A stretch of DNA of 64,000 bases from Cyanidioschyzon merolae. Its lineage: Eukaryota. The notes below the pieces were generated by a model. That model did no database searches and was not told the DNA's origin. It was given only the letters and a program-made list of their open reading frames with translations. Location of the stretch: the NCBI GenBank assembly GCA_000091205.1, contig AP006489.2, one strand, 5' to 3'. This document shows, piece after piece, positions 236 to 60,598 of this stretch (position 1 is its first letter; the number at the start of each line of letters is the position of its first letter). The position numbers were made by a program, and so were the translations under genes.

Positions 236-3200
236 ATGCCGCCACGTAAGCGCAGGACAACTGAGCTTGAACGTTTGGGCGTGCACCTCGAGGAAAGCGT
301 GTCGGACGCTGTACCCGTGCGACGTCAGGTGCGATCACGGACGACGGAACGTGTTCGCGGAGGCCGGCACGATGATGAAACAACGGAGCAGGTGCATTTG
401 ACGGGGTCAGACACATCGGATACACAGAAGCAGCCAAAGCCTATGCCAGTTCAGCAGAAGCAGCCCAGAGCTGCCGTATTGCAGACGCCGAAAGAAACGC
501 TTTCCGAGCAGCTTGATCGTGCGCTATCTCCGTTGCTCCCGTTTCTCTCTTGGCCTCTGCATGATTCGAAAGATTCTGAACTTGAAGATGCGCACTGGCA
601 AGCCCAGCTGGAAGCCGCTGCGACCCAAACTGAGCATTTCGTGGAAGAGCTGGGAAAAGATGCGTCCCATGAATCAGGAATTGACGCAGCACTCGCCCAG
701 GCGCTCTGGTGTCTCTATCTCGCGAGCGCTAGCTCTTTTGAAGCAGAACCCAAGCGCAGCGTCGTGACTTGGCCAGATGTCGCACGAACGCGGTGGACCC
801 AGCTCCTGCGGCGCCTTCTGCATCGGAACTTGCTTAGCAAGGCGGTTCTCGTGCGTTGGCTCCCGCCTGAGAGCTGGCAACAAACCGGTTTGGTGAGCGA
901 GCTCGACGAGCCGGCACAGTGGACGCGGTCAGTGCGGCGACTTCATACCCGAATACATTACACTCAACCAGTGTACCAGGTTTTCCGGGAACAGCCGCTA
1001 GGTTTTGCAAGTCTGCTCAGTGCTTTCACAATCTGGATGGAAAACGCAGATGCCTTTTCTACTGACACCAAACTAGACGCATCGAGCAACATGAAACCCG
1101 ATCACGCCCTAGATGCGATCGTTAACGAGCATCTATCGACTTTTCACATAGAAACAAACCGAGCATACGACTTGGGCATCCAAATGCTGATCGCTATCCA
1201 TGAATGGAAACTGCGGCAGCATCGAAAGGCTGCACTGCTCAACTCGGGGCCTGCGGCTGGCCCTGGAGCTGAACTGCCGCAGCCACGAACGCCAGAGGAG
1301 CAGCAGCAGCAGCAGCAACGGCACTCGCTGCCCGATTCCGGTGTCTGTATCCGTTGCCGGACGCTAGTCGAGATCGAACAGGCCTTGATCAACTGGCTAC
1401 GAGGTGTCCCGTCTCGTAACGCTGCGCAGCTCTTGGGGTTCCGGCTCCAGCAGCTGCAGTCCGCTGCGGCCTGTGTGACGTACCAAAAAGCGGTGCCCGA
1501 AGAGCGCCTACCGGAGGCAGTGTTTCTGGTGGCCGCACGTCTCATTCACGAGAGAATCGTCTCACTGGAACAGCTGTGGCCTCATGTGGTGAACGCGGAT
1601 TATGAGGACGCCGCCACCGTCGGAACTGACGCAACGCTAGCAACGAGTGGGCAGACATCGACAACCGCGTCGCCACCGCCAAAACGAAACACTGCTGCAG
1701 ATGCGCGTTCAGCGAGAGCAGCGCCCATAGACCCAGCGAGCGCTGTCCAAAGCAAGCCCTGGGATGAGCTGGGAGCCTTCATCACTGCCCAAACGAAAGC
1801 ACTTGCGCGCGTGCGCCTGGTTGAACGCGACTGCAGCAGAGAGCAGGCGTCAGCATCGGAGCGGGGTTCGCAGGCATCAGCGGCTACGGCCTCGCGCGAG
1901 ACAGACAACGCTACCAAAGCGGTCGACGCCGTCTACGATGCCCTGAGCATGCGAGGCATTCTTGCACCAATAGCTGGCGAACTTGCTCTCTTGGCTGCAC
2001 TGATCGACTATGATGAGTTGCATCTGGTCGAAACCTGGATCCAGCGTGTGTGGCTGGCAGACCTGACCGAGAACGCTACCCTTTGGCACTGCCGGCGGGA
2101 GCTTGTCTACGCAGCTGCTCCGCTTCGATATGCCCTGTTTGCCTACATCATGCGTCATATTAGTCAAGTTACGGGAAACGGATCCCGCGTCGTGATGGCG
2201 ACCGGCGCTGACGCTGCCGCGGCTGAGCCCAGCGACGAGAACAACCATGCCAACGACACCAGAGCACTGCTTCTTCGTGTTTGGCGCCTGCTCGGTGGTC
2301 ATCTCGTTCAGCGTCCGGAGCTTTTCAAGGCGATGTGGTCTATTGTGAGCAGTACGAGAGCAGTGAAGCGTGCTGATCCTGCTGTTGATGCGCATGAAGC
2401 ACAGGTAGATTCCACAGTATCCGCCTTCTGGGCGGGTGACGGAATTCTTCCTTGCTCGCCTCTACTTGCTGTGCTGTTCTCCCAGGGGAGCGCGGCGGTT
2501 CCAGGTTGGCTCTTCGGAGATGCTAACGCTGCACTTTCCTCGCTGCCCTATGCCTACCGTTATGCTTTGTACCTGAATGCCTGTGCGACCTGCGTGCGTC
2601 TTTCGAGCTCAGCTGAGCCACGTGCTTCCGTACTGATCCCGTTCTGGCATGCCCTGTACCGAAGCATGAGTCGACGTCTGCTACGTCGACTCGCCGGCGA
2701 TACGATTGGTTACATTGCCAAGTCGCTCGAGCCGATGCTCTACAGTGAACCGTGGGCTGTAGCGCGCATCATCCTGGACCAAGTTCAAAGCTACGATAAC
2801 CTCGTGGAGCCTGTTGTGGAGATGCTTATGTGGCTGTTGCGAGCTCGGACGGACCTCAGTTCCGCCTCAGACGGGGAGCGAGTGCATGCGCTCGCTTTCG
2901 CGCTCGATGTCTTCTTCGCGCTGTTCGTCGAGGAATTAGCGGGATCTGCACAGAACGGAACCCAAAGACCTCGCATTCGCTCTCAAGAAAGCGGTGGCAG
3001 TCTGGCGAGCTGGTTCCTCAACACCATTGAACTCGTTGTACAGCTCAGTCGGCGCATGGTAGAGCACCTTGCTGCACTTTTGCCGTCAAATGAGAACGAG
3101 ATCCATGGCTACGAAAGCGTCGATCCGGCGTTCACTCTGCAGCAAGTGCTGCAGGACTGCTGGCGTGCGCTCTTACAGCTGGCTGAAAGGCGCATCATCC

Positions 3201-11355: not shown

Positions 11356-11439
11356 GGGATGGAATATTTTTGGTTTGACAAAGCGATTCCGTGTAGCCTG
11401 GATCCTAGATGGCGGAATAGATATCGGTATTCGGCAAAG

Positions 11440-11600
11440 CGTCTACCGTGCAGCGCTCTAGCTCCCAGTTCCATGACCCATACCTCCTCTCGGATATGCT
11501 GGTCGTTCCGTACGTTCTATCGTTTCTTGGCACTGCCGTTTGGGTTGTGTTCCGCGTGAGTACAACAACTGCCAGTGGATACACAGGTGTCGCTCTCCGC
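11440..11600 (-). repeat. Internal fragment of a SINE-like dispersed repeat family (copy e)
   Basis: 'cctctcggatatgctggtcgttccgtacgttctatcgt' aligns to the family core 'cttcatctcggatattctggtcgtttcgtacgccctatcgtgtg' seen at 17.4 kb and 60.4 kb. Confidence 0.6.
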
Positions 11601-17334: not shown

Positions 17335-17645
17335 CGATTTTTTTCATTGACAAAACGTTTACTTAGGCCAGCGCTCTCGAATTATACGCTTTTTTGTTTC
17401 TTTTTCTTTTCTTTTCCTACTTTTTTGTGTTTTTTCAGTGCGCGGTGAAGTATCCATCAAACACCCTACCTCCATGTTACATTACCTATACTTCGTCTCG
17501 GATATTCTGGTCGTTTCATACGTCCTATCGTGTGTGCCTAGAACCTGCCTTTCTGTATCCGCCTTTGCACCTGAACCGCTCGAGCAGATAGTTCGTAGAG
17601 CTAGAACAGCATTTCTATACCATAGAGGGCGTCGGCTCGAGGGGT
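17335..17645 (-). repeat. SINE-like retroposon copy (copy b); element sense on minus strand, A-rich tail at 17335
   Basis: Aligns along its length with the copy at 60262-60548. It ends 'agagggcgtcggctcgaggg' (17624-17643). It lies in the divergent GH36/GT4 intergenic region. Confidence 0.7.
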
Positions 17646-18507
17646 GCTTCACCCGACATAGAATCGGGTCTCGTCGTCGGTTTGTGCTCGGACAGTCCGC
17701 GAATGTAGGCTTGGCTTCGCTGCACGACACGCTGGAGAAACTTGCTGTTAGTATGAATCCTGGGAGCCGCCTCTCTCCTTCGTGATCATGCATGGAATGC
17801 GTCGTTGGTTGGCAACGCGGGTTTGTGCTTGACACCCACCAGTGGGTAGGCGCAGAAAGCGCACTGGGCCCGTGTGCGCATCCGATTCGCTGGACCTTAT
17901 GCCTAGAAGGTAGATGCACCGATCGATGAGACGAGCGTTCACGCGCCGTACGTCATTGCTCGACGGAGACGTGTAGCTGGAGTTGTGTGAACACCCCAGC
18001 ACGCCCAGGCGCCTCCGCTTCGAAAGGCTTACCGATCCTGTATACAAAAAATGAAAACAGCAAGTAAAGCATCCATTGGAACATGCATCTTCGCATAAAA
18101 TGTGTAGGAATCAGACACCATTGACGAAAGTCGTACTCGATCGCTCCCATCAACATTCCTCGACTGCTATTAATGGAGCTGGAGGGAACGAAGAGACGAC
18201 CGATTTCTAAGCCCGATATAAGACAGACGGATTCTAATCTGTTCATAAAAAAGCCAGCATATGCTCGTGTTTATCATAGTGGCACGAATTCAAAACATGA
18301 GCGCATTCGTGCGTTCCCCCTGAATAGAGACGCTCCATCGATATCTGACTAATGCGCATCGCGCGCGTTCCGCATTGCCAGGGCGCAGCTGAATGCACCA
18401 CGCTGAAAATCTGTGGTGGATACGAGAGGATACCGGGTAGGCGCGTCTGAATTCGGCATTTGTAGTTGTTGTGTGTTGCTGACTCTCGTCCAACGACTTC
18501 GTGCACC

Positions 18508-26200: not shown

Positions 26201-28021
26201 ATGCGACATTCCGCCCTGTGTGTCCAGAAGCTGCGCGTATCGCAACGCTCGCGAGCTTGTCTGTTCGCCAACGGTCACGGGAGGATGGTCCCTGCAACCC
26301 GAGTACCAACGAAAGTCGTAACAACAAACTCGTGGCCTGATTCCAACTGGAAGCAAGTGCAGTCTTTGTTTCGAGGATTATGGTCCGAGACGGTGCGACC
26401 GCAGCAGTGCGCTGATGATCTCTATCTTTCCGAGCGGCGACGACGACTCGAAGTCTTTGCACGGCGGTCTCGCAGCTGCCTCAAGGCGTGTTGTAACAGC
26501 ATGCGGCGCTTTGTTCGTGCCGCTGTGTCTTCGCCGCGCCAAATGATTGCGAGCTCGCGCTGGAAACATAAGCTGCATGAATTTGACGTCATTCTAAGGT
26601 ACTTGGGAAAGTTGCTTTCCCATGTAGACGCCCGTACTCGTCAGTTTTGGATCAAGTTATTTGTAGTGCAGATGGAAGAAGAAATTCTGGAGACGACTGC
26701 GAACATAGAAAGCATTGTATCACTTGCACCATGTCGAGCGGTGTGCTACGAATGGCTTCTACGCGTCGGTGCATGGCGCGAATTTCGCACTTCGCTGCTG
26801 CGCCATCAAGAAGGGCCAATCGACGCTATATGCTCATACAAGAAGGCGGTTTCGCTGGTTCCAGGCGACGGAAGAGCCTATTTCGCTATTGGATGCGCGT
26901 TGCGTTTGGTGAGGCACGCTTTGCCGAGTGCTCCAGGCGCTCACGCAGCTGCATCGTCTTCACTGACTACCGGAAAGCTGCCTGGCACCGAGGAACTGGT
27001 CTGGCTCGCTCGAGGATACTGGTATATACGCGCATGCCTCGCGAGCACTCGCCAGCATTCAGACGCTCGAAAGCGCTTAGTTGGCCTTGTTCGCAGATCT
27101 TCGACCCTGGCATCTATTTTGCTCCCACAGAGTAGATGCTCCGAGAATCGTAGCGGTATGGGCGAGCTCAATTCGTACAGAGATTCTGCTGACGCTTCCA
27201 CATGTCTAGGCAGTGCTACAGGAGCGGCTGCGCGTGGCGCATTGCTCGCGCGCCCGGCAGCGCACCTCCTAGATGCACACTGCAGTCTCTTGACGAACGC
27301 TTTTGATCAGATTTGCGCCTGGTTCGAGGAAACAGCAAACGAACTGACAGCTGATAACCACGATTGTCCGGCGGTGCACCTTATCACGGCGGTGGTGTTT
27401 AGCCACGCTGATGCCGGAGCTGTGGGACCAATATGGCGACTGCTCCGCACGTGTTGTTTGAGCCAGTTACAGGCCGGTGCAGGGATTCTTGCTGATTACG
27501 TCACAGCGCATCGAGATATTGTTGAGCAGGCCCCGCCGGGCGCTGTCGTTTTTCTGCAGGCTTGTAGGGATCGTTACCTTGCGCACGGTTCCGCGAACGA
27601 TGCCGTAGCACAAAATGGAGCGCTCACGCTCCTCAGCCCGGCAGTGGTTGCTGCGGTGGATGACTTTTGCGACACGCTCGAGCTCTGCAACGACCGGTTT
27701 TTGCCTGCACCTATCTCCCCAGATATTTCCACGAGTTCGAAAACAAGGTATTTGCGAGCTGCACTGCCCGAAGAGCGCGTATTCGGGGGCTTCACTCCAA
27801 TATCGCAGGTATACGCGAATATAGTTGACTTTTCACATGATCGCTCTTTTGCTGAGGATGCGACACGAGTGCTGGGTCACCTGCACCTGTCGACATCTGC
27901 CATGCATGCAGGCTATGCGTGCGCGATGCGCTTGAGGAAACTTGAACATTTGGTCACAAAGCTCCGACGTCAAGCACCCCGGCAGCCGCTGGCATCGACG
28001 GGTGCACTGCACACTGGGTGA
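26201..28021 (+). CDS. Hypothetical 606-aa protein; weak EST1/SMG7-like TPR signature only
   Basis: Long uninterrupted ORF with host-like codon usage and GC. 'AICSYKKAVSLVPGDGRAYFAIGCAL ... LARGYWYIRACL' is faintly reminiscent of the Est1/Smg 14-3-3-like repeat ('Y..A..L.P..G...LA.L ... YYYLRSL'). No firm domain call. Confidence 0.45.
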   Translation: MRHSALCVQKLRVSQRSRACLFANGHGRMVPATRVPTKVVTTNSWPDSNWKQVQSLFRGLWSETVRPQQCADDLYLSERRRRLEVFARRSRSCLKACCNSMRRFVRAAVSSPRQMIASSRWKHKLHEFDVILRYLGKLLSHVDARTRQFWIKLFVVQMEEEILETTANIESIVSLAPCRAVCYEWLLRVGAWREFRTSLLRHQEGPIDAICSYKKAVSLVPGDGRAYFAIGCALRLVRHALPSAPGAHAAASSSLTTGKLPGTEELVWLARGYWYIRACLASTRQHSDARKRLVGLVRRSSTLASILLPQSRCSENRSGMGELNSYRDSADASTCLGSATGAAARGALLARPAAHLLDAHCSLLTNAFDQICAWFEETANELTADNHDCPAVHLITAVVFSHADAGAVGPIWRLLRTCCLSQLQAGAGILADYVTAHRDIVEQAPPGAVVFLQACRDRYLAHGSANDAVAQNGALTLLSPAVVAAVDDFCDTLELCNDRFLPAPISPDISTSSKTRYLRAALPEERVFGGFTPISQVYANIVDFSHDRSFAEDATRVLGHLHLSTSAMHAGYACAMRLRKLEHLVTKLRRQAPRQPLASTGALHTG

Positions 28022-28231
28022 TTTGCGTCGTATGCAGGTTGCTTCGTCAATCGCCTCACGGGCGGATGGAGCGTCTCGTTTGCGTAAGGAATCATGGCGG
28101 CGTCTCCGATATCGAGTTCTGCTAGACAAAGGCGTTTGGATCTGGTGGGTGACTGGAATTCGGTGACGAAAGCGGTATGACATGAATTTGGGGCGCCAGT
28201 CGAGCACATGTGGGACTTTTCGATGACCGCT

Positions 28232-28244
28232 CCCCCCCCCCCCC
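28232..28244. repeat. Poly-C homopolymer (C13)
   Basis: Read directly, just 3' of the 26201-28021 gene and at the start of an AT-richer segment. Confidence 0.9.
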
Positions 28245-30494
28245 AGAGCAGTATGATCTAGTTTTGCGCTCGTGGGTATACCCTGGACATCGTGTAAGCG
28301 TTGCTCATCAGAAGAAGCGCGGGATATGCTGTTGGATTGTGCGGGATACCTGATTGTCGACATCGAGCGCGCTCTAGAAAGGTACGCTATGACCGGTCGT
28401 GTAACGCTCCTTCTCGCAATTGGCCAGGGGAGCTCCGGCGTATATCGCGTCGCTCATCCCAAATATATGTGACTGTTCACGATGATAGCCCATCATGGGG
28501 AACTTTTTATCCACCGCTCGGCCGTTCACTTGGAATCGAGCGTAAGATGCTGCTGTGCGTGATCTATTTGTGAGAAAGTTCCCGTGCATGTCCTAGTAAC
28601 TCTACAGCTGCTGGTGGTGCTTCAGGAACATGTTGGGTTAGGATTTGGCCGAACGAACGTTCGGAGAGGACGAAAATCGATAGCTTTATGGAAGAACTTT
28701 AAAGGATGAGAAGCGCATTTGAAACGATCGCGCGTTTCCGCCTTCTTGGTACAGCGATATGCTCACCTTGAGAAGAGATATCCACGGGTAGCTACGGCCA
28801 CATGCAAACAAGGGCGGCAACTCGACCAGTTTGCGCACGAGATCCTGGGCGCATGCCTTCACCGCATAAACTCATGCTTCACTTTCTAACACGCTCCTCT
28901 GACTTTTTTCCATGGTCTAAATCCACGATCCTAACCAGATTTCCTCTGGAGGCGCTCACGCCACAACGGAAAACGAAAGAGACCTCAGTGATTCCATTCT
29001 ATGGCTGTTCCATGAAATGACGCACTTGCCCACGATCGGAGACTCTGTCGAGGGAAACGCGAATTATACAAGGAGGGCACTCAAGGCCACGGTTTTCCAC
29101 GGCTGGCGTACACAATCCGGGACCCAAAAAGTGGAATGGCTGAGGTGGCTATGGGCAGTAGCCGCAAGCTCCCGAGCACCTGTAGATTCTTTTAGTCCTT
29201 CGACTCAACTTTGTTTCACCATTGATATATTGTATAGCAGGAGATCGAAATCTTTACGCAATATACCGTTTAGACAGCAGACGGATCGCATTTAGGATAT
29301 ATATGTTCCTTTACGAACAATGCAAGGAGGACTGCATTCCTTTTTCAGCTCAGTCATACCACAGTACTCCGATGGCCCAGGGACTCCGAAAGAAAGAATT
29401 ATGTGCGCTGCGCTCTAAAAAACTGCTACTGTCCGAGCGTGCTCGTAGACAATGGTAAAAAAATTGCCCGATAATCACCCCACGAAAAGCAAAAGTGGCG
29501 GTAGATGCACTAATAAGCGTCTTTGTTTCTCAACTGCCAGTTCATGTGATCCTGAAACACTGGGATACAGTCGCAATAAAAAGTCGAAGATCGCGCTCGG
29601 CAATTTTGCATAGACATCGCAACCACAGCTTTCCTGGTATTCAGCGATCGGTTTGAAGTAGAGGGACGTCGGTTTGGTTTTCAGTCGATTGAACTTGCTT
29701 CGAACGAAACAATCAGAGCGCCCTTGGGTATTCGAGGAGACAGGCACCCATTGTATGTACGATCGAACTCGAAGAGAAGAACAACATCATCCGTTCGAGC
29801 TGCAGTGGATTCATTCGGCAGCCTCAGTTTCGCTCATAGAGACGGCTCATAAAACAACGCCCAGTACTCGCTCGAATCATTGAAGACTTTTCCCTGACGT
29901 TTGGCGATGTGCTTCTATTGGACATCATGGCGCCCCATCATTCCCCTTGCGTTCGAGCTTTTTGCAGATTGTATTGAGGTAGGGCTGCTTTTCATTCTTC
30001 CATACGCTCCATGGTTTATCCCCATCGAAGGAGCGTTTTCTGTGGCAAAAAGTAATGATTGCTTCGCTGGGTGATTCCTTGAACCTTTGATCACGATGAC
30101 ACCGGAACACATCTCGTTTTTCTTCCACAAAAGCTTCACCCTTGGAAACGTCTTCATATAAGGGCTTGAAGGGAAGTTTTCATTTTCAAAAAGTAAAAAA
30201 TCCAAGGGAGAGCTGTGTACATGGAACTGGAGGATCCTGGAGGACCGGTGTCGCCGGTTGCACGAAAAACCCGCAAAGCAGAGCCAAGCAAACAGGAACA
30301 GGCGAAGACAAAGAAGGAAAGGCCGGAGGCCCAACGCCAGATGCTGCAAGAAAGCCGACTGTACGACGAGATGGTGGTGAAAGCCTGTCTTCCTAAGCAT
30401 ATCAAGGATCCCTAGAGGGAAAAGTTGCGAGAGGGTATCAGCAAAACGTGTCGACTCGTACTCCAAGAGTACCGTCAAGGCGTCGTCAGGACTG

Positions 30495-32501
30495 ATGCAT
30501 TTGGCGAGGGAGATGTACGAAGACGTGGCGCACATGGAAAAGGTCGAGGTTCCGGAAGAGGTTTTCGACAAGACGTTTATTCGTCACCTGATGCTTGGTA
30601 CAGAGGAAACGCGGAGGGAAACTGAGCTACTGCATGCCCTCCACGAAAACTTCGTGGAATTCCGCTTCGAGGGTACCCGATGCAGGGGTGACCGGGATAT
30701 TTACACATATGGGGCGATGAAGTACATCACGAACCTGAAGAACCATTTGACAGTGAACCTCGAACGTTACATGATACGCGCCTTGTTTGCACTCTACCCG
30801 GGCATCTGTCCCAAAGGAATATCAGCGATTATCAATGGCATCACGCACGATCGCAAGCTTGAAGATGACATCGAATTTGTCGACAAGAAGGCGTCAAACC
30901 AGAGCACGAATAAGGTGTCCGTCATCCGTGCGGATTTACAAGAGCACCGTGCAGTCATGGAGCTGCCGAATCCAACAGACAAGATATCAGAGTTGAGAAA
31001 AGATAAGGGAAGATACTATCGCCTCGTCCTGCTGTATTTCGTGGTTTTGGACCGAGAACTCGAACGCAAGGCACAGGTGAAGCTGAGTGGGGGAAAATGA
31101 AGAGTGGGAGAGACGGAAGGCTTTCCATATGGGGAAGCGCTTCTACGTCGTTCTAATGTGCACCATCAAGTCACATTTTGTGACTATCGACTCCGCAGTC
31201 ATTCATGGCATCATGAAGGAGATCAGTCCGGAGTTCGATGTTAGCAGGGAGGAATTCTCCGGTGAAAACCGGGAGACGTTCTGGAAGAACATCTTCGATT
31301 TCAAACGTCTGAGGGTGAGCAAACAAAAGGTACTCACTGGGATGATCGAAACCGATGGAGTAGTCATGTGTGTACACTATCGGCGGTTGAAGAAAGATCG
31401 TCCAATCCCCGCCTCGGCGAACCATGAAGATGAGAAGGAGGCGGATCCTGCGAAGCAGGAAGCGGAGGATAACGACTTTGTTGTTGACGTGACGAAGCAT
31501 GAAGATGAGATGGAAGCGGGTCGTGCGACGCAGGAGGTGGAGGATAACGACTCTGTCGTTGGCGCAACGAAGCATGAAGAAAACAAAGAGGAGGATCCTA
31601 CGACACAGAAAGTGCAGGATAACGACTTTGTCGTTGGCACGGCGAAGGATGAAGATGAGAAGGAGGCGGGTCCTGCGACGCAGAGAGTGCATGCGAACGA
31701 CTTTGTCGTTGGCGCGGACCCCGGAAACACGAATATCATCACCATCCCTGCTCCCAAGCGTGCGGAATATGGTACTGATGGCAACTTATGTCAGAAAGAC
31801 ATGCGACTTTCGAGGTTCTCGAGAGCGAGATACTCTCGAGAATCCAGTATAATGAAAGCAAGGAAGAAAATCGAGACGTGGAATGCTAGACTGAAGGAGT
31901 ACCTGGAAGTTTTGAGCGAGGTGACGAGCCGAGGAGCGGACTTTAAAGCTTTTCGGAAATTTATGAAAGTTCGCGTTGCTCATTGAGATGCACTGTGTGA
32001 GGAGTATACAAAGCCGGGTGGGCTCTTCTGCGAATGAACTTGTATTGCCGGAAGCAGCGCGCATTCGCGAACTTTTTCAATGAGTTGAGCGCCCTGAAAG
32101 AGGATGAAAGTCAGAGGCTTGTAATAGCGTACGGAGCAGGGCGCTGGATGACCCAAAAAGGTACTACACCAGCTCCAACGACAAGAACGTACAAAGAGTG
32201 TGCACGGCGTTTTGTCACAGTACCTGTAGATGAGTTCCGAATATCGTATACACACCATGAACTGGGACGTACACTTCAAAGGGTCGAGATGGAAAAGTGC
32301 CAGGGGAGTCCTGAAGACATAGCAAAGTACGGACCGCTGCCGGAGGTGCAAATGGAGAGGAGGACAAAAGTGCGAGGGCTACTCGCATTCGTAAGTACAA
32401 CCAACGACGGCAAGAAACGTATGGAGTTTGTGAACCGAGACTTTAACGCCGGCATCAATATCAGGAGATGCGCGGTGATGGAGAAAAGGCCTCCACAGTA
32501 G
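30495..32501 (+). CDS. Fanzor/TnpB-like RuvC endonuclease, about 650 aa, split across three frames (introns or frameshifts); possibly a pseudogene
   Basis: ORF A is 30495-31100, ORF B is 31087-31986 and ORF C is 32034-32501. RuvC-I is '[17 protein letters not shown]' (about 31705-31740). A TnpB-type pre-zinc-finger segment reads '[22 protein letters not shown]' (compare TnpB 'LeYKa..G..vv.Vdp.yTSq.C'). RuvC-III is '[13 protein letters not shown]' (about 32436-32470; compare 'D.NAA.NI'). The A/B junction falls at a G5A4 homopolymer and needs a 1-nt frame change. The B/C junction needs a length change congruent to 2 mod 3. Confidence 0.65.
31420..31727 (+). repeat. Four in-frame tandem copies of a 75-nt (25-aa) unit ending in the RuvC-I motif
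   Basis: '[25 protein letters not shown] / [25 protein letters not shown] / [25 protein letters not shown] / [28 protein letters not shown]'. The nucleotide units are about 80% identical. Confidence 0.85.
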
Positions 32502-32760
32502 ACAAGAGAGAATTTTAAAGGACAACTGCTCAAAGTGGAACTATATGAGAAACAATTGGAACCAGTCGTAAGTGGCCGATCCAAGAAGACGGGGAGGCGT
32601 CTGCACGTCAGTTCGAGACTGCTTGTCTAGGGCGGGTTTATCGCCACCACTGTGCACCGCTGGCGGCGGTCGACTTTTGGAAGGTATTCGCTAGAGGTGC
32701 TGTTTATAGGGATCAAGTCTCTGAAGCGAGATGCTTTCACGACCTCTGCCGCTCCAGACG
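32400..32760 (+). ncRNA. Predicted position of the Fanzor omega-RNA (overlapping the 3' end of the nuclease ORF and extending downstream); not directly recognisable
   Basis: By analogy with TnpB/Fanzor loci, where the guide RNA scaffold overlaps the 3' end of the nuclease ORF. Local inverted repeats are present, for example 'tagacaag' at 32502 paired with 'cttgtcta' at about 32625. No conserved motif was verified. Confidence 0.2.
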
Positions 32761-32802
32761 AGAGAAAAACAACGATAACTTCGGGGCCGGAGAAGTGTTG
32801 AC

Positions 32803-35157
32803 ATGAAGGCGCTGCACGTGGCGGAGAAGCCTTCAGTTGCACGTCAAGCCGCAGCTGTGCTTGGACATGGTCGCGCGGAGCGAAAATGCAGCTGTTCTCC
32901 ATATCACCCCAACTGGTTCTGGTCTGGTGTGTTCGAGTTCAGCGCCAAAGACGGGACGCGCTTCGTGGTCGACGAGCAGGTCTTTACATCTGTGAGCGGT
33001 CACGTCGAGGAGCTAGACTTCGTCACACCTTATCACAAGTGGAGTGCCTGCGAACCAGTGGACATATTTCGGCGGGACCTGGTGCAAACTCGCCGCTTTG
33101 TGCCGGAGAGGAACGCAAAGGTGGCGCAGAATCTGGGGCAACTGGCCCGTACGTGCCAGTACCTTGTGCTCTGGCTTGATGGCGACTCTGAAGGCGAGGC
33201 CATATCAGATGAGGTGCAGCGAATTTGTAAGCTGCCTCCTAGCATGGTGTTCCGTGCCCGTTTTTCGGCAGTAACGCCCAGGGACCTTTTCCGAGCCTGC
33301 GCTACGCTTGACCGGGTGAATGCGAAAGTTGTCGAGGCCGTATGGATTCGTCAGGAAATCGACTTGCGTGCTGGGGCCGCATTCACCAGGTGGCTAACGC
33401 GGCACATACAGCGCCATTACCCACAAGCGCTCATTTGCACATCTGCAATTGTCGCCTCGCGGCGTAAGGGTGCCTCTGGAACTTCCAACTTAGGGCGGAA
33501 CGAACGCCTGCAGGGGAGCGGTGTTTCTTCTGCTGACGCTGCTGTGGTGAGCTACGGACCCTGTCAGTTTCCGACACTCGGCCTTGTCGTGGATCGCTAC
33601 CGCGAGCGGCGCGAATTTCAAACGAAGCCCTTCTGGACGATTCGCATGCGTATTCAGACGACTGGCGATCGAGCCAGCGGGAATCAAGTCGAGCTTTGCT
33701 GGGACCGGGCACGCATCTTCGACCGCTTTATTGCATATGTCCTTTTTCAGAGGCTCCACGATGCGGTACGGTTGCCAGGCGCCTTACGCATGATCGCTTG
33801 TGAGAAGCAACCAGCTCACCGAAGTAGACCGTTGCCGTTATCGACGGTAGAGCTCCAGAAAGAAGCCTCCAGAAAACTCAAGCTATCTTCAGCGCAGACT
33901 ATGGAAATAGCCGAGCAACTCTATCAACAGGGCTATATATCTTACCCCCGAACGGAGACGGATCGATTCCCAACAGACGATCGTGGTATATCGAACCTCA
34001 AAGCACTCATTACCCTGCAATCTGAAGACCAGAGATGGTCATTGCTAGCAAAGCGGCTGCTCGAAACCGACGACGTATCACGTGGTGGGTTCAAAGCACC
34101 GCGCGCGGGCAGCCATGATGACCACGCGCATCCGCCTATTCATCCTACCAGCGCTGCACCGCCCGGCACCCTGAGCGGCGATGCCGCCCGACTCTATGAG
34201 TATATCGCTCGCAGATTCCTGGCTTCATGCTCTGCGGATGCCAGTGGCGAACGCACCATCTGGCGTTTCGCCGTCTTTTCGGGTGCATCGGAGGCGCGTA
34301 CTGAAGCACCACAGGAGACGTGCATGTTTCCCGCGAACACGGTCTTAGAGACATTCACGAGCAAGGGTCTTCGTATCACGAATCTGGGCTATTTGGAAGT
34401 TTTTTCTCCATATGAGAAGTGGTTGGAAAGCACTTTGCCAGGCGATTTGGAATGCGGTGCTGCGGCTCCAGAGCATTTTTGGCTGACGGAGCTGCGTCTT
34501 GAGGAATCGATAACAGAGCCCCCCGCGCTGCTCTCTGAGGCGGATCTCATCGCTGCTATGGATCGCCACGGCATCGGCACCGACGCGACGATTGCAGAGC
34601 ACATTAAGAAAATCCAGGAACGTCATTATGTGGTGAAACAAATCATAGCGGAGGAGCGGCGCCGCCAGTCTCATCGAGCCGGAACACAGGTGCACGATGC
34701 CGCCGCGAACAGCAGCGACGAGTGCGATGCCTCACAAGTGACGTCTCGGGCACACTCTGCGACGAGAACGCGGGAACGTTGTGGGCTCGTCTCAAGGAGC
34801 AGCGTACAGCGTTTCGTGCCTATGAAACTGGGCCAAGCTCTCGTCGAAGCATTTGAAAGCTGTCACGTGCATTTAGCGCGCCCCAACCTTCGTGCTGAGC
34901 AGGAAAGGCGCCAAAAACTTGTCGCCAAAGGAGAAGCCTCTGGGTCAGAGGCACTGGATGAACTCCTAACGTCTTTTGCGGAAGCGTTCCGACGCCTCGT
35001 GCTCGAACGCAGCAAGTTTGATGCGACGTTCTGCAAGTTCTTTCCGAAAGCAGAGCCTCCTTCGCTTTTGCGTGCTCCTGCCGCTCTAGAACTCACTCAG
35101 AGCAGCGTAAGACGTTCTTGTGTTGTGCCCACGGACGAATCGAATGCGAACGAATAA
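32803..35157 (+). CDS. TOP3: DNA topoisomerase III (type IA)
   Basis: The TOPRIM N-terminus reads 'MKALHVAEKPSVARQAAAVLGHG' and 'LVLWLDGDSEGEAISDEV'. The catalytic-tyrosine signature is 'GYISYPRTETDRFP'. 784 aa with a low-complexity C-terminal tail; ATG at 32803. Confidence 0.92.
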   Translation: MKALHVAEKPSVARQAAAVLGHGRAERKCSCSPYHPNWFWSGVFEFSAKDGTRFVVDEQVFTSVSGHVEELDFVTPYHKWSACEPVDIFRRDLVQTRRFVPERNAKVAQNLGQLARTCQYLVLWLDGDSEGEAISDEVQRICKLPPSMVFRARFSAVTPRDLFRACATLDRVNAKVVEAVWIRQEIDLRAGAAFTRWLTRHIQRHYPQALICTSAIVASRRKGASGTSNLGRNERLQGSGVSSADAAVVSYGPCQFPTLGLVVDRYRERREFQTKPFWTIRMRIQTTGDRASGNQVELCWDRARIFDRFIAYVLFQRLHDAVRLPGALRMIACEKQPAHRSRPLPLSTVELQKEASRKLKLSSAQTMEIAEQLYQQGYISYPRTETDRFPTDDRGISNLKALITLQSEDQRWSLLAKRLLETDDVSRGGFKAPRAGSHDDHAHPPIHPTSAAPPGTLSGDAARLYEYIARRFLASCSADASGERTIWRFAVFSGASEARTEAPQETCMFPANTVLETFTSKGLRITNLGYLEVFSPYEKWLESTLPGDLECGAAAPEHFWLTELRLEESITEPPALLSEADLIAAMDRHGIGTDATIAEHIKKIQERHYVVKQIIAEERRRQSHRAGTQVHDAAANSSDECDASQVTSRAHSATRTRERCGLVSRSSVQRFVPMKLGQALVEAFESCHVHLARPNLRAEQERRQKLVAKGEASGSEALDELLTSFAEAFRRLVLERSKFDATFCKFFPKAEPPSLLRAPAALELTQSSVRRSCVVPTDESNANE

Positions 35158-59555: not shown

Positions 59556-59879
59556 AAAATCAGCCTTAGTGTTCTGAAAATACAGATACTAACCATCAAA
59601 TAGAAATTCGATATCAATTTTCTTCCTACTTTACGGTAACCATTGAAAGGGGAAAGCATTTGCTTATTCTCAAAAGTTCGGTTTCCAGGCTGAAAGTCGC
59701 ACGAGCCTTCCGAGCCTGCCAAGCTTTCGCTCCACATGCCTCTTTATAGCCTGGTGCTCTAGCAAGGCTTGAACAGCTCGTCCGCTGTGCGGGATAGTCT
59801 GGGACTTCGCGTGCTCAGGCTGTGTCTGGGACTCGCTCTCGTCGCGATGCTACTCTGACACATTGCTTCGCGCTTTTGC

Positions 59880-60200
59880 TTGCAGTGCGCCTGTCTGCGC
59901 GGATTGCAGGCTCTCAGCAATATAATGAATCCCGATCCCGAGTCGGCGAAAAACGCAGCGAGCTTACGTCTTCGGTGGTACGGCAAAGCCGTCCTGTCTG
60001 CGTGCTGCATTCGCACCTGCGGGATAGGCGCTAATGCTGGTGCCCACGATAGACTCGGCGCAAGATAGAACGTTCGAAACGACCAGTATGTCCGAGGGGA
60101 AGGATGGGTAATAGAACTTGAAGATAAGATTACGCATGACTGACGCTTTCCCGAATGCCAATATCGACCCCGCAGTCTGGGATCCATGGTCTACACAAAC
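59880..60200 (+). repeat. Older, diverged SINE-like family copy (copy d), element sense on plus strand
   Basis: '...cgtcctgtctgcgtgctgcattcgcacctgcgggataggcgctaatgctggtg...cgaaacgaccagtatgtccgag...' aligns at about 70-75% to the reverse complement of copy c. It lies tail-to-tail with copy c. Confidence 0.6.
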
Positions 60201-60261: not shown

Positions 60262-60548
60262 ATTTTTTTCATTGACAAAACGTTTACTTAGGCCAGCGTT
60301 CTCCGATTATGCGCATTTTTCTTTTCTTACTTTTTGTGTCTTTTTCAGTGCGCGGTGAAGTATCCATCAAACGCCCTACCTCCAAGATACATTACCTATG
60401 CTTCATCTCGGATATTCTGGTCGTTTCGTACGCCCTATCGTGTGCCGAGCGTGCCGAAAGCGACAGCAGTAGCGCCTATAGCGCCAGTGCGGTCGCTGCA
60501 CGGAGACAGAACGGCGTTGCCGTACCGCAGAGGGCGTCGGCTCGAGGG
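60262..60548 (-). mobile_element. SINE-like non-autonomous retroposon (copy c) with a 12-bp target-site duplication
   Basis: The element is flanked by the direct repeat 'atactctttcga' (60250-60261 and 60549-60560). In element sense (minus strand) it starts 'CCCTCGAGCCGACGCCCTCT' and ends in the A-rich tail '...AAAAAGACACAAAAAGTAAGAAAAGAAAAATG...GTCAATGAAAAAAAT'. This is the same family as copies a, b, d and e. It sits about 50 bp upstream of the 60599 ORF. Confidence 0.7.
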
Positions 60549-60598
60549 ATACTCTTTCGATGTGACACGCTTTCGACGCGGCTACAGCGCTGCCGCAA

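Follow-up and report, generated by a model that had tools for sequence, protein, structure and literature searches.

CMe-1A is a repeat family of the alga Cyanidioschyzon merolae described by Bao and Jurka (2013, Mob DNA 4:12; PMC3627910). The family has about 150 copies, and each matches a 3,169-bp consensus with roughly 80% identity; the consensus encodes a single-exon Fanzor1 protein (CMe-1) of 734 aa (PMC3627910). The class of the element was given as unknown and its target-site duplication (TSD) as undetermined; it has no terminal inverted repeats (TIRs) and no transposase, and its 5′ 635 bp are common to a separate repeat, TE-N2_CMe (PMC3627910). The original Fanzor/TnpB signature, the Bao and Jurka motif, includes a "strictly conserved" C4 zinc finger. 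CMe-1 was nonetheless classed as Fanzor1 by the authors of the family (PMC3627910). A rearranged catalytic site, having its canonical glutamate replaced by glycine or proline and an alternative glutamate downstream, defines Fanzors and TnpB2, and N-terminal nuclear localization signals (NLSs) are frequent in Fanzors (PMC10530073). In characterised Fanzors, the right end is the source of the omega-RNA, and this RNA can overlap the stop codon (PMC10432273). In this study, 64,000 nucleotides of C. merolae DNA (GCA_000091205.1, contig AP006489.2; hereafter the window) were analyzed, and an element next to the topoisomerase gene TOP3 was compared with these systems.

The CMe-1A consensus DNA and protein were taken from the supplementary files of Bao and Jurka. 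By blastn, consensus positions 876–2193 corresponded to window positions 30179–31489 with 84.2% identity, and positions 2120–3147 corresponded to 31641–32667 with 87.6% identity. Global alignment of the window element with the consensus gave 85.5% identity, and the published CMe-1 protein matched the window protein. The window element is almost certainly a copy of CMe-1A carrying a Fanzor1 relic. Since the TOP3 product of the window was identical at 784 of 784 residues to DNA topoisomerase III alpha of C. merolae 10D (BAM79581.1 / XP_005535867.1), the host is the same species as that of CMe-1A. A trypanosomatid or an apicomplexan host was rejected on this identity. An earlier reading by a model that saw only the letters and their translated open reading frames (ORFs), called here the sequence-only reading, had presented the locus as a new lineage-specific one. 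It is already known, as a degraded copy of a published family in its type species (PMC3627910). Window copy and consensus share the species, the single-exon protein and the 3′ end, and neither has TIRs or a transposase. The window copy differs in lacking consensus positions 1–875 (the upstream region, including the TE-N2_CMe-like 5′ module), in having four units of a tandem repeat and not one, and in the three stops and three frameshifts of its ORF and the loss of its start codon. The truncation, the lesions and the lack of a transposase in both sequences agree with the sequence-only reading, which had taken the insertion for a relic without a transposase.

Joining the frames of the window copy through the three frameshifts and three premature stops gave a single protein of about 690 aa, which had 48 homologs with 52–83% identity (E 5e-290 to 2e-57) from a few Joint Genome Institute (JGI) metagenomes, and one distant relative with 30% identity. 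A profile of 92 diverse members was compared with PDB and matched exactly the solved Fanzor1 proteins: PpFz1 of Parasitella parasitica (9cf0, E = 1.4e-23), SpuFz1 of Spizellomyces punctatus (8gkh, E = 7.6e-17) and GtFz1 of Guillardia theta (9cer, E = 1e-10). The comparison of a predicted structure with known folds, suggested in the sequence-only reading, was made on P0001 of JGI contig Ga0504780_000149, the most complete intact paralog, and not on the broken window copy. The AlphaFold2 model of P0001 had a mean predicted local distance difference test (pLDDT) score of 84 and a predicted template-modelling (pTM) score of 0.81, with disorder only in the tandem-repeat region. In Foldseek against PDB, the top seven matches of the model were all Fanzor1 chains (E 1.3e-16 to 6e-14; TM-score 0.71 normalised to SpuFz). 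Cas12 enzymes and Fanzor2 appeared only at E > 4e-3. Because both the profile and the predicted fold match solved Fanzor1 structures, the locus can be identified as a Fanzor, specifically Fanzor1, in line with the TnpB/Fanzor-like RuvC nuclease proposed from the letters. A chance combination of motifs in spurious ORFs would fit the fragments having no Pfam or NCBIfam match; it is refuted by the matches to paralogs (E as low as 5e-290) and to solved Fanzor1 proteins with the profile (1e-23) and by fold (1e-16).

An exhaustive profile search retrieved 2,140 clusters (50% identity) at E ≤ 1e-3, of which 321 were at E ≤ 1e-30. Most of the family proteins have 600–700 aa, and one relative comes from the green alga Haematococcus lacustris. 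Precomputed annotation labels the family PF26935 (DUF8286), with weak or faint matches on homologs. DUF8286 appears, from these matches, to be a piece of the CMe-1 Fanzor1 clade and could be re-annotated as Fanzor1/TnpB-related.

The catalytic columns were conserved among the 92 diverse members: the Asp of DPG in 90, the Glu of VDEFR in 90 and the Asp of NRD in 89. The canonical RuvC-II position was Gly in 90 of 92 (AYGAG), and the conserved Glu of VDEFR lay 33 residues downstream. In RuvC-III, R, D, N, A, N and I were each kept in 85–90 of the 92. In the profile alignment, RuvC-I was aligned with VLMDPGRRDLLY of PpFz1 and VVIDPNKRDILY of SpuFz1, and the alternative-Glu block with LIDEFRTSSFCPKC of PpFz1 and LLDEYKTSSVCPRC of SpuFz1; RuvC-III was aligned with NRDQAAVLNF, NRDMLSTCNM and NRNVAGAFNI in the solved Fanzor1 chains. 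The family motifs DPG, (D)EFRT(S/T) and NRD.NAA.NI line up with the corresponding motifs of PpFz1, SpuFz1 and GtFz1. The D/E/D assignment of the sequence-only reading was borne out by these columns, and the family, judged by its alignment, keeps the Fanzor-type rearranged D/E/D triad. In the AlphaFold model, the putative triad is D484, E656 and D725. The solved and biochemically characterised proteins SpuFz1 (8gkh, 9ceu–9cez), PpFz1 (9cf0–9cf3) and GtFz1 (9cer–9cet) resemble the CMe-1 clade in overall fold, with a long helical N-terminal half. Both groups have DPG in RuvC-I, Gly at the canonical RuvC-II position, the alternative Glu in (D)E(F/Y)(R/K)TS and NRD in RuvC-III. They share only 13–15% sequence identity. 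Unlike the solved Fanzor1 proteins, CMe-1A has no transposon context of TIRs and a TA TSD.

The state of the window copy was determined by scoring lesions against the consensus ORF (906–3110); frameshift positions are approximate. Three collinear + strand ORFs, a small ORF upstream of them and nuclease motifs had been noticed from the letters, and all were present at the positions given for them. The three ORFs are pieces of one intron-less ORF split by 1–2-nt indels and stops, and are not genes or exons. When the three frames were read together, the ORF junctions resembled frameshifts, and one ORF stopped in-frame inside an otherwise continuous coding sequence. Homologs read continuously across the second frameshift (~31093), and intact paralogs read straight through every break of the window copy, e.g. 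VRVAHWDALWEEYTKPRWARLRMNLY. The coding part had been placed up to 32501. The coding remnant in fact runs further 3′: the seemingly non-coding stretch behind the third ORF is mostly former coding sequence up to a TAG at 32628–32630, and the element ends at about 32686. Because it has six ORF lesions and a mutated start codon and lacks the first ~875 bp, the window copy is a dead Fanzor1 pseudogene.

All three catalytic motifs are still intact within the ORF fragments, and some Fanzor genes contain introns (PMC3627910, PMC10530073). The three ORFs could on these grounds be exons of a functional intron-containing gene, or parts of a programmed-frameshift gene, as in Chlamydomonas CRe-1 to CRe-3, which have 5–10 exons; an active nuclease would in that case be encoded here. 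This is very improbable. The family ORF is single-exon in the consensus and in intact paralogs, and the breaks are indels of +1, −2 and −1 nt against the consensus and not intervening sequences. Three in-frame stops lie within collinear, alignable coding sequence, the copy has neither its start codon nor the upstream 875 bp, and the other long genes of the window are uninterrupted ORFs.

The small upstream ORF had been read as a separate K/R-rich, NLS-like feature. The K/R-rich stretch is present, but it is not a separate feature: it corresponds to the N-terminus of the same protein, which begins with MEKEVEDPGGPVSPAAGKKRK... in the CMe-1 consensus. K and R account for 15 of 50 residues of this segment in the consensus and 11 of 48 in the window. 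A role of the K/R-rich N-terminus as an NLS is plausible by analogy with other Fanzors (PMC10530073).

The tandem repeat sits directly before RuvC-I and takes in the start of the RuvC-I strand. The window copy is 213 nt longer than the consensus at this point, and its four units are three more than the single unit of the consensus. In the AlphaFold model of P0001, the repeat region (residues 386–469) is disordered, with pLDDT <50. The repeat copy number also varies among paralogs (P0001, P0007, P0017), the others having 3–6 units. The unit is acidic, ...KHEE.KEA.PATQEV.DNDFVV..., and each closes with the NDFVVG that opens the RuvC-I strand.

The spread of the element was investigated in metagenomes. 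DNA similarity to two homolog loci was limited to about 30188–32684 of the window, and the flanking genes were unrelated. Other copies and the element ends, which the sequence-only reading had proposed to look for, were both found. The metagenome scan gave 321 tblastn-confirmed copies with unrelated flanks, and across 80 fetched loci homology began at 30175–30183 and ended at 32665–32690 (window coordinates). Since the shared segment has common ends and unrelated flanks across copies, the feature is a mobile element in its own right, about 2.5 kb long and with a single ORF. The TOP3-adjacent insertion itself was 98.5–99.5% identical in C. merolae populations of three metagenome samples, so the metagenome copies evidently come from C. 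merolae populations, and the pseudogene is fixed. The middle ORF, as given by the gene caller, has 319 aa and not 285 aa in two of the population samples. Because of this difference, lesions of the TOP3-adjacent pseudogene would still be building up or segregating in strains of C. merolae. The samples also differ by 26–80 substitutions over 5.3 kb (loci L083 and L085 against L084 and the window).

An insertion common to the populations of three samples might instead have been retained by the host as a domesticated Fanzor derivative with a cellular role beside TOP3, such as a nuclease-dead RNA-guided regulator. Domestication of bacterial TnpB into regulators is documented (PMC10705468). For the window copy this is hardly credible, and the observed stops refute it: six lesions leave no long ORF. 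Hundreds of paralogs with unrelated flanks exist, of which this copy is one, its divergence from the consensus is like that of other copies (85% identity here, about 80% in the family), and only adjacency links it to TOP3.

The 5′ ends of the family were tallied on copies with a left end away from contig edges. Of these, about 14 start at consensus 1–7, and in about 30 another 5′ module takes over at 638–703; starts were also found at 786 and, in the window copy, at 876, the latest. CMe-1A thus has sub-families in which swapped 5′ ends are joined to a common body of Fanzor gene and 3′ end. Alternative 5′ modules occurred in L005, L006, L036, L038, L039, L040 and other loci, about 250–330 nt upstream of the Fanzor ATG. 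One of them has a perfect 12-nt palindrome, GGACACGTGTCC, and a second one contains the A-rich block AAAGAAAAGAAAAA...GCGCACAATCGG. Most copies have a TATATAA box about 65 nt upstream of the Fanzor start codon. Across 79 unique copies, conservation by codon position followed the order 2 > 1 > 3 (e.g. 0.93/0.90/0.74 at consensus 2201–2300), so the CMe-1A protein was under purifying selection while the family spread.

The 3′ end was common to all CMe-1A copies. It includes the stop codon, set in a short palindrome, a hairpin of GGCG...CGCC, the seemingly invariant CACTACTGTACAC and a hairpin of 7–10 bp at the terminus. The terminal hairpin has at least three forms, CGUUUUUC-UUUU-GAAAGGCG, GUCGUUCGA-CUU-UCGAACGGC and CCGUCGUUC-GACUUA-GAACGGCG. 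Folding was carried out for each sequence, since these forms pair in different registers. The terminal hairpin was found in most copies, with a mean of −7.5 kcal/mol on the + strand and −4.5 kcal/mol on the − strand (Wilcoxon p = 4e-6), and the terminus of the window element folded with −7.6 kcal/mol across 35 nt. The bias in stability fits an RNA or sense-strand role of the hairpin and is suggestive only. The non-coding 3′ part of the window element is a candidate for the 3′ part of an omega-RNA scaffold, for the right end of the transposon, or for both. An Rfam scan of 29800–33000 gave no match. Among loci L001–L079, the 3′ flank after the consensus end (...GAAAGGCG) had T at +1 in 23 of 31 and T at +2 in 29 of 31, followed roughly by (T/G)GT.G; the window flank (32687–32700) is TTCGCTAG. 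This non-random flank means either that the element extends a few bases past the consensus or that it inserts site-selectively.

The hairpin could instead be a DNA signal and not an omega-RNA feature. A rolling-circle or HUH-type enzyme of Helitron2, Replitron or IS200/IS605-like kind would then use it to mobilise CMe-1A in trans, with Fanzor as mere cargo of a non-autonomous single-strand transposon. Such a role is possible but doubtful. It is favoured by the missing TIRs and undeterminable TSD (PMC3627910), by the common 3′ end combined with heterogeneous, modular 5′ ends, by the position of the hairpin within ~10 nt of the 3′ end and by the bias of the 3′ flank. Fanzor1 elements of Chlamydomonas (CRe-1/2/3) ride on Helitron2 and resemble CMe-1A in being algal, abundant and non-autonomous, with a 3′ hairpin and frequent 5′ truncation. 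They differ in having several exons, canonical zinc-finger cysteines and a demonstrated Helitron ancestry, which is not shown for CMe-1A. No RepHel, Rep or Y1 gene was noticed in the window or in the loci examined, where no search was aimed at them. The G:U-dependent stability of the sense strand favours an RNA role; a single-stranded DNA intermediate of the sense strand would give the same bias. The RNA and DNA roles are not mutually exclusive. The right end of IS200/IS605 serves both as a part of the omega-RNA and as a transposition end.

Bacterial TnpB of IS200/IS605 (ISDra2, 8h1j/8exa) is likewise a RuvC-type nuclease in a TIR-less element whose structured right end has a subterminal hairpin. 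A guide RNA from the 3′ end, as in the bacterial TnpB/OMEGA systems, may be supposed for CMe-1A only by analogy. CMe-1A differs in having no TnpA partner, a protein about 300 aa larger, a rearranged catalytic Glu and a eukaryotic nuclear host. No adjacent TnpA (Y1 or serine recombinase), and no OrfB_IS605 or TNB domain at threshold, was found in 28000–35000.

CMe-1A can be described as a non-autonomous, TIR-less element with one intron-less Fanzor1 gene, and the window element as one of its ~150 genomic copies. By homology to SpuFz1, PpFz1 and GtFz1, intact copies would encode a nuclear, omega-RNA-guided DNA endonuclease of RuvC type with a rearranged Asp/alternative-Glu/Asp site. By the same homology, the 3′ end of the element would be the source of the guide RNA, whose transcript would overlap the last codons. 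It would close with the conserved terminal hairpin and extend into the flanking DNA, which would serve as guide.

Several results weigh against this description. In Pfam-A and NCBIfam scans of the three ORFs, the joined protein and intact and diverse homologs, no model, TnpB models included, reached threshold, and a profile of 13 close homologs had zero matches in PDB. An ORF of at least 650 aa was kept in only 2–3 of the 79 unique copies. For 30 right ends aligned with MAFFT, RNAalifold gave no meaningful consensus (−1 kcal/mol). Hyper-conservation of the last ~270 nt from an overlapping omega-RNA was considered and rejected, because third-position identity there (0.75–0.76) equals that of the rest of the ORF. 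A CxxC between the TS motif and RuvC-III is absent in CMe-1 and in 89 of the 92 members, and with no canonical zinc ribbon intact members are not certain to act as nucleases.

The zinc-ribbon region has 0–2 Cys in 81 of the 92 members, and CMe-1 has only HH-x4-C-x10-C. SpuFz1 and PpFz1 have ...TSSVCPRC and TSSFCPKC... here, whereas the CMe-1 clade has ...EKC... and RGLL(W/A)(C/L).ST in place of CxxC...CxxC. The sequence-only reading, which had the alternative-Glu block preceding a zinc ribbon, does not hold on this point. The Pfam zinc-ribbon model TNB gave only sub-threshold values on family members (E 0.07–0.23), and domain scans fail on the clade because the canonical zinc ribbon is absent. 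The OrfB and TNB models stayed below threshold even on intact members, so the Pfam profile test that had been offered to refute a Fanzor would wrongly do so. On a speculative and rather unlikely view, the CMe-1/DUF8286 clade (at least 2,140 clusters) would be a zinc-ribbon-less Fanzor1 lineage whose few intact copies are still active RNA-guided nucleases. Its omega-RNA would end in the 3′-terminal hairpin, and the TT(T)G flank would mark site-specific, transposase-free homing; the window copy would still be dead.

The features of the window element are collected in Table 1.

Table 1. Features of the CMe-1A copy next to TOP3, in window coordinates.
Feature	Position	Strand	Basis or remark
5′-truncated, degraded CMe-1A Fanzor1 element copy	30179..32686	+	blastn against published consensus
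Fanzor1 pseudogene, what remains of the CMe-1 ORF (single exon, 734 aa)	30215..32630	+	alignment to consensus ORF 906–3110
Small K/R-rich upstream ORF	30215–30415	+	noticed earlier; present
Lost start codon, ATG>GTG	30215	+	alignment to consensus
K/R-rich N-terminal segment, putative NLS, part of the Fanzor1 protein	30260..30340	+	matches CMe-1 consensus N-terminus
Premature stop 1, TAC>TAG, consensus codon 67	30413..30415	+	
Frameshift 1, +1 nt relative to consensus	~30442	+	
Three collinear ORFs	30495–31100, 31087–31986, 32034–32501	+	present as noticed earlier
Frameshift 2, −2 nt relative to consensus	~31093	+	makes the apparent ORF1/ORF2 overlap
75-nt (25-aa) tandem repeat, 4 copies, in frame	31418..31716	+	Tandem Repeats Finder (TRF): period 75, 4.0 copies, 79% matches
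RuvC-I motif (GADPG)	31699..31746	+	catalytic Asp codon 31717–31719; GADPG 31717–31731
Premature stop 2, TGG>TGA, codon 520	31984..31986	+	
Frameshift 3, −1 nt	~32014	+	makes the ORF2/ORF3 gap
VIAYGAG, canonical RuvC-II position, Gly instead of the TnpB glutamate	32121..32141	+	
Block with alternative catalytic Glu (VDEFR)	32190..32252	+	Glu codon 32232–32234
RuvC-III motif (NRD)	32433..32468	+	
Premature stop 3, TTG>TAG, codon 692	32499..32501	+	43 further codons in the ancestral ORF
Ancestral stop TAG	32628–32630	+	alignment to consensus
3′ non-coding element end: hairpin GGCGggtttatCGCC, conserved CACYACTGTRCAC, degraded terminal hairpin	32631..32686	+	right-end alignment; candidate omega-RNA 3′ part and/or right end

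The adjoining gene, at 32803–35157, encodes a type IA topoisomerase (Topoisom_bac 1e-86, Toprim). The element had been described as richer in AT than neighbouring genes. This is modestly so: its GC content is 0.506, against 0.564 for TOP3 and 0.556 for the upstream ORF (whole window 0.533), but adjacent intergenic DNA is equally low (0.494). More distinctive than GC is the coding strand of the element, with 59% purines (A+G). Antisense or overlapping ORFs of 60–218 aa without homologs occur across the element (e.g. 29915–30571 and 31171–31692, both − strand). They seem to arise incidentally from the tandem repeat and from a coding strand rich in purines. A second Fanzor copy was not present in the 64-kb window, only TE-N2_CMe-like fragments. 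Four such fragments, 74–81% identical to the 635-bp 5′ module of CMe-1A, lie at 59582–60191 (−), 60375–60550 (+), 17465–17668 (+) and 11376–11523 (+), and none is attached to a Fanzor ORF.

The window locus itself has little significance, being one decayed copy of a catalogued repeat family in a well-studied model alga. The family matters more. Standard Pfam and NCBIfam scans miss the CMe-1 Fanzor1 clade entirely; its members carry only the label DUF8286, and automated annotation therefore keeps reporting them as unknown. The clade departs from the textbook Fanzor/TnpB motif in lacking the C4 zinc ribbon, which is a matter of the family and not of this locus. C. merolae is an organism with good genetics. 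Concrete starting points for studying the mobilisation and the guide RNA of CMe-1A are its structured common 3′ end, its 5′ ends, which are modular or truncated, and the bias of its 3′ flank. If the flank is the guide, CMe-1A copies would share a target motif.

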